Virus record (IMG/VR): IMGVR_UViG_3300032285_003360
Span: 37,770 to 101,769 of that record
Length of the DNA: 64,000 nucleotides
Strand: one strand, 5' to 3'
Origin: a virus
This document shows positions 38,022-56,929 of the stretch, in pieces. Numbering within the stretch: position 1 is the stretch's first letter; each line of letters begins with the position of its first letter. The translations under genes were made by a program, and so were the position numbers. The notes under the pieces are model-generated. The model did not search any database. It was not told the origin of the DNA and saw nothing but the letters and a program-made list of their open reading frames with translations.

Positions 38022-39098
38022 TTAAATGATGGTTTTATTTTTATCTAAAAATTCGTGCATATTATGGAATACCATCTTCTCACCTCTAATTTTATTTAGA
38101 CTAATTAAAAATTGTGTGTGCTCAGGGTGAGATGTGTCCCATACCTTTCTAATCAAATATTCACTTTCACTAAAGCTACCCCAGTTCGCAATCTTACTGA
38201 AAAATATAACACCTCGTTTACCAAAAATATCTCTTATTAAATTAACAAACTCACTCATTTCAAAGTAGTTACCCGATTGAACGACAAATGATGTTCGTAT
38301 AAATCTTAATGTGGGTATTGTTTTAATAAAGTTTAAATTGTTAATCAGGTTTTCCCAATTACCACCAAGCCTTGTAACATTTTCATATGTTTCTTTTGAT
38401 GCCGCATCTATACTGATTTCACAACTTTTAACATAAGGATGTATATTGGACATGCTATCCCACATCTCTTTATTCCACATACTTGCGTTTGTGTGTAGAT
38501 GTATCTTTTTTAACTTGGGGTATTTGTTTGAATCAAATGTTCTTAAGAAATTTCTAAATGAAACGGAAACGAATGGGTCGCCACTACCAGTAATGTAAAG
38601 CGCGGTAATATCCTTTGCATAAGCATCTTCTATTTCACTAATTGTTGATTTAATTTTTTTAATCTCATCGCCACTTGCTGTTATAACATCAATTCTACAT
38701 GATGGACATTTGTAATTACATGTCGCATCAAAAGCGAATTGGACAACACTTGGTCCAACCGTCATTTCACCAGTTTCATAATCATAGTCCTCAATTAATT
38801 CATGAAAATCTTCTTTTAATACCAACGGACCTTTCCTATCGTTTAAATCACCATCTAATAAAGCCGATAGATACGGACAATAGTTTTTGTCACAATATTT
38901 GTAACTACCATCTAATACCGACTTTCTTATTTCTTTGGATTCGGTTGAATTCCAAATTTGTTCAATTGAATGGTCTTCGTGTTTAATTACTTTTGGCATC
39001 CACGTGGGACAACACATATATGAAGATGTTTTGTGTATTTCAATGGTTTTAAATGGTGTCAAACAAACATAATCATTTAAATTAACATCATTTCTCAT
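38022..39098 (-). CDS. radical SAM enzyme with N-terminal SPASM/twitch domain
   Basis: C..PF...CCP.W...C...CP; CNYKCPSC; GSGDPF, LHTN, EISIDA. Confidence 0.9.
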   Translation of the reverse strand: MRNDVNLNDYVCLTPFKTIEIHKTSSYMCCPTWMPKVIKHEDHSIEQIWNSTESKEIRKSVLDGSYKYCDKNYCPYLSALLDGDLNDRKGPLVLKEDFHELIEDYDYETGEMTVGPSVVQFAFDATCNYKCPSCRIDVITASGDEIKKIKSTISEIEDAYAKDITALYITGSGDPFVSVSFRNFLRTFDSNKYPKLKKIHLHTNASMWNKEMWDSMSNIHPYVKSCEISIDAASKETYENVTRLGGNWENLINNLNFIKTIPTLRFIRTSFVVQSGNYFEMSEFVNLIRDIFGKRGVIFFSKIANWGSFSESEYLIRKVWDTSHPEHTQFLISLNKIRGEKMVFHNMHEFLDKNKTII

Positions 39099-39691
39099 AT
39101 TAAAACCTTTGTGTTTTTTTCGCCACGATATTTTTTACTAATATCTAAATAATCTTTAAAATATCGCTCATTATATGGACACTCAATTTCGTTTAAAAAT
39201 TCAATCATGTTTTCTTTATTATAAAATAAATCTTCATAATAGAAAATTTTTGACTGCTTAATTTCAGCGAGTTGGTGCATTTCGTTTTTAACATCTTGCA
39301 AAACCTTCAAACTCAATTCTAATTTTTGGGAATCCTTTTTTTCATCATACATATATTGTCCTTCCCACTTGTTACTAATTAAAGCAGATGAAAAACTTTC
39401 AGATTGTTTCTCAAGGTCTTTTCTACTTAAAAAAACTATTTTATCAAAATCATTAAAAACAATATCATAAAACTCATATCTTGTTATATTATTATATTCA
39501 CTTGGTATTTGTTTATATAATTGTTTAATAAAACAATCGTTATGTTTTAATACATCGCTATATGGAATTGATTCGTGTTTTAAAATGTTAAATGGTTCCA
39601 AATAAACACTATATTTTGGTTTAACCTTAAAAAAATATTTACCTAAGGATGTTGAACCCGTTCTTGGTTCAGCAATTAACATTATTCTCAT
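39095..39691 (-). CDS. sulfotransferase-like (P-loop) protein
   Basis: PRTGSTSL 5'-PSB motif, EPF, L.R......S, YEDL. Confidence 0.75.
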   Translation of the reverse strand: MRIMLIAEPRTGSTSLGKYFFKVKPKYSVYLEPFNILKHESIPYSDVLKHNDCFIKQLYKQIPSEYNNITRYEFYDIVFNDFDKIVFLSRKDLEKQSESFSSALISNKWEGQYMYDEKKDSQKLELSLKVLQDVKNEMHQLAEIKQSKIFYYEDLFYNKENMIEFLNEIECPYNERYFKDYLDISKKYRGEKNTKVLI

Positions 39692-40455
39692 ATAATCGTT
39701 TTTTTAGTTTGTGGTTCTAACCCTAACATACGAATAAATTCTTCATAAATCAAATGTTGTCTATAAGTTGTGTAATGATCCAAATCCCTTGCTTCTAATG
39801 AACCATCCTTACTCCAATTAATATCATCGTTTCTTAGAAGATAATAATTACACCCTATTTCCGATGCCAAATGTTTTATTGCGGAAATAAATGCAGTATC
39901 GATAAAAGATTGTTGGTCGTTGTTAACTAACGAATCTTCAATCAATGTTCCATATTGAACTTTCCATTCATCTTGATATTCATTGACTTTACAAATTGTT
40001 GGTTTACCGTTAATTATGAATTCGTATCTATAGTAATTTGGGAGGTAATGGAATATGTTTTTAATCTTTAACTCTTTATAATAACCAAGTAATAAACGAT
40101 AATGTGACATCACTCCAGTCCCGCCAATGGATAAGTTCCAAAACTTACCTCCGATTTGGTTGTTTACTTTATATGACCACACGTTTTCAAGATGGTGACC
40201 GACACCAAATGTATATGAACAACCTAAAAACACATTACCCTCATCAACCAAATTAAAATCATCAGGTGACCTGAAACCTTCATTGTTTAATGTGTATTTT
40301 ATTGGGTTTTCTAAATAATATTTTAAACTTTCGTTGTTGGGATATCTCTTTAAATTGGATATGAAATTCTCCTCTTCGTTTTGTGTAATCCAATTGTATG
40401 TTGTGTTAGGTGAATATTTCTCCCAACCGCACCTGTCTTTATAAATGGGAATCAT
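39688..40455 (-). CDS. SGNH/GDSL-like protein
   Basis: N..GFR, FLGCSYTFG.G, NLSIGG, ARDLDH. Confidence 0.65.
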   Translation of the reverse strand: MIPIYKDRCGWEKYSPNTTYNWITQNEEENFISNLKRYPNNESLKYYLENPIKYTLNNEGFRSPDDFNLVDEGNVFLGCSYTFGVGHHLENVWSYKVNNQIGGKFWNLSIGGTGVMSHYRLLLGYYKELKIKNIFHYLPNYYRYEFIINGKPTICKVNEYQDEWKVQYGTLIEDSLVNNDQQSFIDTAFISAIKHLASEIGCNYYLLRNDDINWSKDGSLEARDLDHYTTYRQHLIYEEFIRMLGLEPQTKKTII

Positions 40456-54926: not shown

Positions 54927-56277
54927 AGAAATTTTTTAATTGTGGGAATGTTTTTATAAAATTGGTTTCTCTTCTAAAATCGTATTCAGTTATATACTTA
55001 GCAAATTGTTGTCTAAAATACTCTTGACTTGGTGTGTTACTATTTTTTATAGCGTAATCATATGTTCTTTTAATCTTTTGTATTTGACTGTCTGAGAAAC
55101 CATAACTATTTTCAAATTTACCGTAGTATAGAGCCTTTTTAGCGGACTCTAATATTAATTCCTTATGTTCGTCTTCAAGAATGTTAACCGACAAAAATGA
55201 GGGGTATCTCAAATATGAGGTATCTAACAGCACCGCACCTTCCCAATATCTAATATCGTTATGAAACTTCTTTTTATATTCAAAAACTCTTTCAATTAAA
55301 TCACCATACGAGAATACCGATAACGCATTGAAGGTTGACATTATATTGACAACTACTTTAGGCAGCTGTTCTAAAATATCATGTATGTTAACCCATAATT
55401 GTTCATAATCCAAACCAAATCTAATATATTCAGCTTGTTCGTTTGCGGCTTCACATGATGTGAAAATTATTAATTCTCTAACCTTGTTGTTTTCGGTTAA
55501 ATCTTTACATATGTTTATAAGTTTATCTATGAGATGTCTTGGAACCGATAAATTGGTGTTGATACCTAACGATAGGTTTGGATTTTCTTCCCAATGTTCT
55601 TGGATATATTCTAATACCCTAAATGTGTCATTCATTAACAAAGGTTCGCCACCAGTAATTCTAAATGTATGTAAGTCTTTGTATAAATCTGGCCACCATT
55701 TCCAAAACGCCTCGGTGTATGGATTCTCATCTGTTAATTTATATGTTGTGTCAACCCTATTGTCAACAAATTCTAATGAATTGAAGTTGTGGTTTTCAAC
55801 GTAAGGACCAAACTTTTTAATTTCTTCAGCCCATTTAGATGAATATGGTGGACTACAATACGCACATTTTAAATTACAAGTGTTTCCAAAAGAAATCTCC
55901 AAATATCTTGGGTTGTAGTCTGCGCGCCAATCTAAATTTTTAATTGTTTCAAATTGGTCAAATGACCATGGTTCGGAGGATTTGAAAACTCTATCCGAAA
56001 ACGAATTTGAATTGTCTTCAACATTCCAACAATAATCACACTCTTTGGGCCTACGACCATTTAACATTTCTCTTCTTGCTTGCTTCTTATGAGATGTGTT
56101 GTGTAATGCTGTTGGGTTGTCCTTTATTTCTTCTAAAGGAATTTTATGTGGAATTGGGTGGTGACAAGAATGTGTTGTCCCATTAAGTAAGTGTATTGTT
56201 ACTTGTGTCCATTTAGCGAGACAAAAGCCGCAACCAACACCATCCAACATCTCTTTATTTGCTTTATAATCGCTCAT
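54907..56277 (-). CDS. twitch-domain radical SAM enzyme
   Basis: FCLAKW, HSCHHP, ECDYCW; CNLKCAYC; ITGGEP. Confidence 0.92.
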   Translation of the reverse strand: MSDYKANKEMLDGVGCGFCLAKWTQVTIHLLNGTTHSCHHPIPHKIPLEEIKDNPTALHNTSHKKQARREMLNGRRPKECDYCWNVEDNSNSFSDRVFKSSEPWSFDQFETIKNLDWRADYNPRYLEISFGNTCNLKCAYCSPPYSSKWAEEIKKFGPYVENHNFNSLEFVDNRVDTTYKLTDENPYTEAFWKWWPDLYKDLHTFRITGGEPLLMNDTFRVLEYIQEHWEENPNLSLGINTNLSVPRHLIDKLINICKDLTENNKVRELIIFTSCEAANEQAEYIRFGLDYEQLWVNIHDILEQLPKVVVNIMSTFNALSVFSYGDLIERVFEYKKKFHNDIRYWEGAVLLDTSYLRYPSFLSVNILEDEHKELILESAKKALYYGKFENSYGFSDSQIQKIKRTYDYAIKNSNTPSQEYFRQQFAKYITEYDFRRETNFIKTFPQLKNFYEKYKS

Positions 56278-56278
56278 A

Positions 56279-56929
56279 TTATATTATTTTTTGTTTTGGC
56301 CCAAGTTTAACATATTCATTTATTTTAAAATCTTTAAAAACGGGACTCTCATATATAAGACCATGATTTCCATTACCACTTATATCAAAGGTCTTAAATC
56401 TTGATTGATTTTCAAAATTTAAATGTGAATATAGATGTTCATTATCATCAATGTTCGTTGTTATAATATCAAAAATCTTAACCTCGTTTATTGAACCATT
56501 GAATTTACATTCCCATTGTTCAAAATGTGGATTAATTGAACCTATTAAAATATTTTTATCGTTATAATCAATAATGTCACCGCATGGTTTTGAACCCAAG
56601 AAAAATCCATCTTTATAAATTCTGATTTCATCCGAAATTGTAACCAACACTTTCATTGGTTTATGCACATCATCAATTTCAATAAAGATGTCATTATATA
56701 CACCACCTTTATTATGCCAAGAAAATTTGATTGCGTTTGGATTTTGTAAAAATAAACCCATATAGTGTTCATCTTGTCTACCTATAATACAAACCTCATT
56801 TTCAATAAACTTACCCAGTTTAAAATCAACATAAAATGTGTAACCATTTTTAAGATTGTTATAATTTTTAAAATTGGTATTATACTTAGTTTTATCGGGA
56901 ATATAATATGTTATTTCATTAAAATTCAT
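56279..56929 (-). CDS. LamG/concanavalin-A-like domain protein
   Basis: IYKDG, ILIG, FNGSINEVKIF, D.SGNGNHG. Confidence 0.7.
   Translation of the reverse strand: MNFNEITYYIPDKTKYNTNFKNYNNLKNGYTFYVDFKLGKFIENEVCIIGRQDEHYMGLFLQNPNAIKFSWHNKGGVYNDIFIEIDDVHKPMKVLVTISDEIRIYKDGFFLGSKPCGDIIDYNDKNILIGSINPHFEQWECKFNGSINEVKIFDIITTNIDDNEHLYSHLNFENQSRFKTFDISGNGNHGLIYESPVFKDFKINEYVKLGPKQKII

Follow-up and report, generated by a model that had tools for sequence, protein, structure and literature searches.

A conserved C-terminal tail on unrelated enzymes of a phage ATP-grasp/Hint gene module: a possible docking tag

Unrelated enzymes encoded at 38022-56929 of a viral DNA stretch of 64,000 nucleotides share a short C-terminal tail. 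The stretch, which is called the window here, covers positions 37,770 to 101,769 of the IMG/VR record IMGVR_UViG_3300032285_003360. The tail is present as a tag on about sixteen enzymes, is under selection at the protein level, is appended to the enzyme folds and is tied to a gene module that contains an ATP-grasp/Hint protein. It could be a docking motif at the C-terminus by which the enzymes plug into this module, a reading to which slightly less than even chances are given, and both the binding and the identity of the partner are what we infer.

Occurrence and shape of the tail

A simple open reading frame (ORF) call gives 21 genes in 38022-56929, and 15 of them end in K-x(0-1)-[LIFV][LIFV], against 6 of the 95 genes elsewhere on the contig (Fisher p = 7.5e-10). 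From amino-acid composition alone, this ending would be expected in about 0.9% of genes. The stop codons fix the C-termini, so the tail calls are independent of start choice. An initial annotation of this DNA had pointed out that unrelated enzymes of the cluster end alike; every tail that it listed was found at its gene, and it had overlooked one, WQKLI at 51474. The six genes of the span without a tail are 41162 (ATP-grasp/Hint), 46296, 46681 (adenosine 5'-phosphosulfate (APS) kinase), 47269 (carbamoyltransferase), 54333 and 54907. The + strand operon had been described as mostly untailed, and this is the case at 5943-15053, where the motif closes one of ten genes (YKIV), but two of the endings quoted for it, PKTS and RPRV, are absent from the ORF list.

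For comparison, 63 viral loci (L001-L063) encoding relatives of about 50% identity to the radical SAM enzyme at 38022 were sampled, and all their ORFs were grouped into protein families. In consensus form, a Lys-rich stretch leads into [K/N]-[T/S/K/N]-[L/I/F]-[I/L/V]-COOH. In the family-weighted logo, positions -8 to -5 are rich in Lys (0.18-0.31), position -4 is K (0.41) or N (0.25), and position -3 is T (0.25), S (0.22), K (0.18) or N (0.13). The last two positions are the most restricted, with L 0.67, I 0.21 and F 0.10 at -2 and I 0.74, L 0.15 and V 0.07 at -1. The 20 tagged families are of unrelated enzyme types, among them radical SAM enzymes, 2-oxoglutarate (2OG) oxygenases, sulfotransferase-like and zinc-ribbon proteins, and the motif is always terminal. 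The sulfotransferase-like family of 39095 (family 5) has the two-hydrophobic ending in 45/45 members and the 2OG oxygenase family of 44545 (family 9) in 26/26. Conservation among orthologues was also found for the radical SAM enzyme at 38022, since its best 120 homologues (52-97% identity) all end in [KRNQS]-x-hydrophobic-hydrophobic. The terminal pair varies within its class in these proteins (LI 70, II 20, LL 8, LV 6, and others).

The tail lies beyond the fold, as had been proposed from its position after short, apparently unstructured extensions. Among 149 representatives of the wider radical SAM family, the close ones are tailed and the distant ones stop at or just after the HNFHHL element, past which the tagged enzymes run 6-8 residues. 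The family alignments show insertions and deletions 4-15 residues ahead of an ungapped terminus. Furthermore, in the AlphaFold model of the oxygenase at 40452-41000 (mean predicted local distance difference test score, pLDDT, 89), the final strand stops at residue 175, and residues 176-182 are coil with pLDDT down to 45. A membrane anchor was rejected as an explanation, since the polar residues are followed by no more than two hydrophobic ones and an amphipathic pattern is lacking.

Selection at the protein level

The initial annotation had named an alternative to its own proposal, in which AT-rich initiation regions and ATGA overlaps bias the termini. In its favour, the GC content is 32.5%, and the residues Lys, Ile and Leu are frequent. 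Nevertheless, the families are bimodal in the 63 loci, since 20 of them carry the two-hydrophobic ending in at least 80% of their members and 25 carry it in at most 20%. In tagged families the ending is kept whatever the junction with the next gene: in 189/189 cases with overlap, 203/216 with a gap of 0-10 nucleotides (nt), 25/30 with 11-40 nt and 52/52 with more than 40 nt. In untagged families with overlapping junctions it was found in 0/63. The enrichment also persists on the window's contig when only overlapping stop/start junctions are counted, with the motif in 9 of 10 inside the span and 1 of 32 outside. In line with this, the genes at 38022 and 43056, which had been described as uncoupled to a downstream start, are separated from the next start by 35 and 31 nt.

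Synonymous codons at the tail positions are used approximately as in the gene interior (Leu TTA 0.73 vs 0.66; Thr ACA 0.50 vs 0.49). The sole exception is a mild over-use of ATA as last codon (0.65 vs 0.46), which fits the ATGA overlaps and is expected from them. Moreover, phage clusters of similar GC content without the ATP-grasp/Hint gene carry the ending at only about 7%. Because the families are bimodal, the ending is independent of the junction and the synonymous codons match, selection on the tail acts at the protein level. An origin from AT bias or stop/start overlap is refuted by the junction-stratified counts, and it is scarcely credible that AT-rich composition, A-rich initiation regions, ATGA overlaps or a nucleotide signal at the junction produced the tail as a side effect. 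The core of the earlier proposal, a selected C-terminal peptide common to unrelated enzymes, is thus upheld: the tail is conserved, junction-independent, codon-neutral and placed beyond the fold.

As a separate observation on gene ends, TAG stop codons close 93/508 genes in tagged families and 13/255 in untagged families of L001-L063.

The source phage and the distribution of the tag

The source of the window is a single viral record of 101,769 bases, which represents about 31% of a genome according to CheckV. Two related records reach 335.6 kb (100% complete) and 323.9 kb (97% complete), so the window is a fragment of an uncultured jumbo phage of about 320-335 kb. The radical SAM enzyme at 38022 has no relative among 50,697 deposited phage records, so there is no cultured system at hand.

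In the 335.6-kb relative, the two-hydrophobic ending closes 9 of the 10 genes that lie between the ATP-grasp/Hint gene (family 4; 41162 in the window) and a gene for a 911-residue protein, against a background level elsewhere in the genome. Tagged genes are concentrated at 281.9-288.6 kb in this genome and at 242-264 kb in the 323.9-kb relative, which has a family 4 gene of the window's type. Among 147 reciprocal best pairs between the two genomes, 12 are tagged in both.

Homologues and clusters that lack family 4 act as natural controls. Loci with family 4 bear the ending on 54% of all ORFs. In L083, a locus without family 4, a radical SAM homologue of 55% identity ends untailed in ...FHHLKEFYDK, and its neighbours are untagged (1/21). 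Other phage clusters rich in radical SAM genes and without family 4, with GC of 0.33-0.38, gave 0/25, 2/21, 1/12 and 2/9, and phage radical SAM or tailoring clusters without family 4 add up to 6/88 ORFs when pooled. In a 169-kb relative (L113), a partly tagged radical SAM array was found with no ATP-grasp/Hint gene within the 21 kb read. Because homologues and clusters without family 4 are at background level, while over half of the ORFs are tagged in loci with it, the tag belongs to the ATP-grasp/Hint module and not to the enzyme families or to phage tailoring clusters in general. The Hint polyprotein had previously been suggested as one scaffold or substrate to which the enzymes are recruited. 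Among the readers suggested at that point, this candidate has the best support by association, given the co-occurrence of its gene with the tag and the background level in clusters without the gene.

Genes of the cluster

The genes of the span, all on the - strand, are as follows.

38022..39098 (-): radical SAM enzyme, 358 residues, Pfam PF04055, tail KNKTII; 35-nt gap to the next gene
39095..39691 (-): sulfotransferase-like protein, 198 residues, tail NTKVLI; family 5, of which a relative matches Stf0 sulfotransferase (E 1.9e-5)
39688..40455 (-): protein of 255 residues, tail TKKTII; weak, sub-threshold Pfam match only
40452..41000 (-): 2OG-Fe(II) oxygenase, 182 residues, PF13640, tail TKKSFI
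41010..41150 (-): untagged ORF of 46 residues directly downstream of the ATP-grasp/Hint gene; partner gene of 24-50 residues in relatives
41162..43024 (-): glutathione-synthetase-like ATP-grasp protein with two Hint domains, 620 residues, untagged; Hint matches in Pfam and model of a relative
43056..43790 (-): protein of 244 residues, tail TKRLI; no Pfam match; 31-nt gap to the next gene
43796..44626 (-): protein of 276 residues, tail DKRLF; ORF and tail read
44545..45021 (-): 2OG-Fe(II) oxygenase, 158 residues, PF13640, family 9, tail TQKFI
45018..45479 (-): 2OG-Fe(II) oxygenase, 153 residues, PF13640, tail SKGLI
45690..46295 (-): protein of 201 residues, tail KKTLL; ORF and tail read
46296..47112 (-): two untagged genes, for a protein of 127 residues (ends PNLND) and APS kinase, 143 residues (ends RKSL; PF01583, E 4e-18)
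47269..48930 (-): carbamoyltransferase, 553 residues, PF02543/PF16861, untagged, ends YLIYK
48927..49700 (-): DUF6734-like protein, 257 residues, tail EKIV; Pfam and tail read
49700..50425 (-): protein of 241 residues with a weak GDSL match, tail SKII; Pfam and tail read
50425..51492 (-): radical SAM enzyme, 355 residues, paralogue of 38022, tail TTKLI; Pfam and family grouping
51474..54329 (-): two radical SAM paralogues of about 470 residues each, tails WQKLI and NEKLF; Pfam
54333..56277 (-): two untagged genes, for a protein of 197 residues (ends IHKL) and a radical SAM enzyme of 456 residues (ends KYKS); Pfam
56279..56929 (-): protein of 216 residues, tail KQKII; ORF and tail read

One further protein was considered, outside the span.

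32543..35275 (-): protein of 910 residues, ends DKLLF; family 16

In family 16 only 5 of 13 members have the two-hydrophobic ending and the remainder end in DKLIN, and on these endings the inclusion of 32543..35275 in the tag set looks doubtful. The enzyme names "glycosyltransferase pair" and "methyltransferase", which had been given to some of the tailed genes, were not confirmed by Pfam. The tag fades distally, as the next radical SAM paralogues of about 470 residues, at 56932-61155 (-), are mostly untagged (endings KNI, ENV and VSI). In the paralogue at 51474-52886 (-), the SPASM match (residues 18-82) lies ahead of the radical SAM core (129-295), the reverse of the usual order, and this gene directly abuts the stop codon of the preceding radical SAM gene (52887) with zero gap. 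Elsewhere in the window there are a tryptophan-halogenase-like gene at 20691-22211 (-) (PHROG E 4e-103) and a thymidylate-synthase-like gene at 1738-2877 (-), whose profile match is split by an insertion.

Families 10 and 11 have tagged members in 0/25 and 0/20 cases. Family 10 is the APS kinase, which supplies 3'-phosphoadenosine 5'-phosphosulfate (PAPS), and neither this enzyme nor the ATP-grasp/Hint protein is ever tagged in the related loci. The carbamoyltransferase (family 8) ends in ...YK in the window (47269-48930), and 8 of 27 relatives have two added residues giving ...YKIL or ...HKIL, for example L006:16369-18036 and L085:1504-3171. These variants may represent the gain of a tag by minimal extension.

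The ATP-grasp/Hint protein and its tiny partner

The related loci have one gene order in common: carbamoyltransferase, APS kinase, a small nucleotidyltransferase-like gene, the untagged family 4 gene, the tagged run and a large gene. The nucleotidyltransferase-like gene has no Pfam match and was assigned solely by an HxGH-type sequence motif. The large gene is either that of a 906-residue glycosyltransferase/methyltransferase (PHROG matches) or a large fibre-like gene.

The model of a family 4 relative (pLDDT 82) shows a C-terminal half with a Hint/bacterial-intein-like fold, and an N-terminal half that resembles the eukaryotic type of glutathione synthetase. A search of 185,579 GTDB species genomes for relatives of the ATP-grasp/Hint protein found none. 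Most family 4 relatives have, after an invariant His-Asn, a hypervariable peptide rich in Cys, about 30-45 residues long and with a conserved CPK, as in L042:4372-5868, L030:5014-6501 and other family 4 genes of L011-L063. The residue after the Asn is non-nucleophilic and the Hint domain is apparently without an N-terminal Cys, which suggests that these proteins undergo C-terminal cleavage only, with release of the Cys-rich peptide.

A tiny gene always follows family 4. Its product has 46 residues in the window (41010-41150) and 24-50 in relatives, where it has a conserved hydrophobic C-terminal half and ends in ...ANS, ...KHL or ...AHS. It could be a substrate of the ligase or part of the reader of the tag. 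The tag itself is identical across groups whose ATP-grasp/Hint proteins share only 17-29% identity.

The tail as a docking motif

Docking is favoured here because the distribution of the tag is module-specific, the PAPS-supply enzymes and the hub are untagged, the tagged enzymes are small and the tag is constant across hubs of 17-29% identity. The tail sits on a short linker, variable in length, that follows the final element of the fold, and according to the proposal its free carboxylate, two hydrophobic side chains and upstream Lys would plug into one pocket of a common partner. Unrelated enzymes of minimal size (radical SAM, 2OG oxygenases, sulfotransferase-like, SGNH-like, zinc-ribbon and others) would thereby be brought to a single hub for the modification of a common substrate. 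The likeliest hub would be the ATP-grasp/Hint protein (41162-43024) together with the tiny partner peptide (41010-41150).

This arrangement would reverse the usual logic of modified peptides, as the enzymes would bear the recognition peptide and the substrate-bearing protein would bear the reader. Modified-peptide pathways follow a leader peptide logic with RiPP recognition elements (RiPP, ribosomally synthesized peptide with post-translational modifications) (PMC10858898, PMC12537861), in which, as here, a common short recognition peptide brings many tailoring enzymes to one precursor. The polarity would differ if docking occurs, with the peptide on the phage enzymes and not on the substrate. 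A reversed leader-peptide system of this kind, with the recognition peptide on 15-20 minimal enzymes and a candidate reader on the ATP-grasp/Hint protein or the tiny partner, is considered tentatively, as something that might be the case but probably is not. The ...YKIL variants of the carbamoyltransferase suggest that enzymes could join the pathway by gaining 4-8 C-terminal residues. In a radical and speculative version of such a system, the ligase would covalently capture the enzyme C-termini.

Several observations weigh against docking at this hub. The family 4 copy of the window has two Hint domains, ends in HNKV and carries no Cys-rich peptide, so that the common substrate is less clear. 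In the complete relatives, a conserved tagged SGNH hydrolase and tagged proteins of 209 and 101 residues sit far from the module, and in one relative a UDP-glucose dehydrogenase, an enzyme acting on a small molecule, has the tag-like ending TKSLL. These distant tagged proteins and the dehydrogenase are a poorer fit to a substrate hub. Eleven related loci are tagged without an ATP-grasp/Hint gene, on contigs that are short or cut. It should also be noted that the association of tag and module is inseparable from the phage lineage, and the same lineage encodes ClpC-like, ClpP and Hsp20 proteins.

Alternative functions of the tail

The main rival of docking is that the tail acts as a degron, or handle, for an AAA+ machine, which would time or limit the life of the enzymes. 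The machine could be a phage ClpC-like ATPase devoid of the N-domain working with ClpP, maybe with Hsp20, or the ClpXP of the host. This is judged unlikely, but there is sequence evidence for such a machine. A true ClpP (NCBIfam, 236 bits) is encoded by both near-complete relatives and by a 53%-complete one (G001, G003 and G006), and G001 encodes a ClpA/B/C-family ATPase of 670 residues with a VGF ClpP-docking loop, whose orthologue in G006 is 85% identical. An Hsp20 gene adjoins the gene of the ClpC-like ATPase, and the three proteins make up a predicted phage-borne proteostasis set in the near-complete relatives.

G001, 109705-111717, 111949-112218 and 212530-213207; G006, 93898-96425 and 315118-315645: Clp/Hsp20 set in complete relatives

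The tail is also similar, in general character only, to C-motif 2 of MuA, RRKKAI-COOH, which is the MuA-type ClpX degron (PMC8138137, PMC12723719): basic residues precede a C-terminal Ile on an unstructured end, and the relatives encode a Clp unfoldase and ClpP. On the other hand, the phage tail has a Leu/Ile pair, often with Thr/Ser at -3, and the phage unfoldase is ClpC-like and not ClpX. The tag is restricted to one gene cluster and is not spread across early or regulatory proteins, and it is hard to see why 15-20 enzymes of a single pathway should be destabilised and those that supply PAPS spared. In our judgement, the Leu-Ile pair is conserved more sharply than a degron engaged by a pore might need. 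Moreover, the linkers have only about 6-8 residues, and Clp genes are missing from the contig of the window, though this covers only about 31% of a genome. As regards the Hsp20 groove, it was discarded as a reader because the tag is not an I-x-I motif.

The tail could instead be the carboxylate substrate of the ATP-grasp ligase. In this case the C-terminal Ile would be activated and then linked to an amine, such as that of a Lys in the Cys-rich peptide or the tiny partner, to give a covalent tether. The ATP-grasp part resembles glutathione synthetase, an enzyme that activates the C-terminal carboxylate of a peptide. The motif must be at the extreme C-terminus and is as invariant across groups as the catalytic residues of the ligase, and CPK is kept in the Cys-rich peptides of the relatives. 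Nevertheless, there is no obvious release step after stoichiometric covalent capture, we know of no precedent for such capture of many enzymes, and as a candidate substrate the tiny partner peptide is at least as good, all of which makes this explanation improbable.

It is very doubtful that the enzymes are sent by their tail into the capsid or to the virion, in the manner of the cargo-loading peptides of encapsulins: the layout, a flexible linker and a short C-terminal peptide on unrelated enzymes, is analogous and the cluster adjoins large fibre-like genes, but packaging iron-sulfur and 2OG enzymes that depend on cytoplasmic cofactors has no evident use and no capsid gene is linked to the cluster.

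Comparison with known systems

The peroxisomal targeting signal type 1 (PTS1) is the C-terminal -SKL-COOH, or [SAC]-[KRH]-[LM], and is read by the TPR domain of Pex5. The phage tail resembles it as a signal of 3-4 residues at the extreme C-terminus, with a free end and a basic residue before a hydrophobic one, carried by many unrelated enzymes of one compartment in the case of PTS1. The two differ in that the phage tail has Lys at -4 and hydrophobic residues at -2/-1 and not [SAC]-[KRH]-[LM], and in its setting of a phage and a bacterium with no known compartment. Encapsulin cargo peptides and clamp motifs are similar in that one short C-terminal peptide on a flexible linker docks unrelated enzymes to a common protein, but their sequences are unlike the tail and the phage cluster is linked to neither a shell gene nor a clamp. 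The bacterial clamp-binding motif, QL[SD]LF or QLxLxL, was rejected since its Gln and first Leu are absent from the tail logo. As for the class I PDZ ligand pattern, [S/T]-x-hydrophobic, Thr or Ser is third from last in 47% of the family-weighted tails, with K/N in the rest; PF13180 (PDZ_2) and PF03572 (Peptidase_S41), the only models searched, are absent from the phage records G000, G001 and G002.

The tailoring cluster of cyanophage S-SSM6a contains carbamoyltransferases, a halogenase and 2OG oxygenases (PMC7824862), and so it presents similar enzyme types and a homologous carbamoyltransferase. However, no ATP-grasp/Hint gene is present in the stretch read, and the tag was found on 0/17 of its proteins, one of which ends in a bare Leu-Leu without Lys. 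Full-text searches of the literature gave no description of the tag, of the ATP-grasp/Hint phage module or of tagged tailoring enzymes.

Significance

At 50% identity (E up to 0.001), the radical SAM family alone has 3366 representative clusters in the library that was searched, and the tag marks a large, undescribed family of phage gene clusters. If the tail were a degron for the phage-encoded Clp protease, the virus would program the turnover of its own enzymes. If it is a docking tag, it would provide a simple, portable rule by which a virus brings many unrelated enzymes together on one substrate, and a four-residue handle for finding pathway members in metagenomes, pulling down the reader and possibly recruiting foreign enzymes in engineered pathways.

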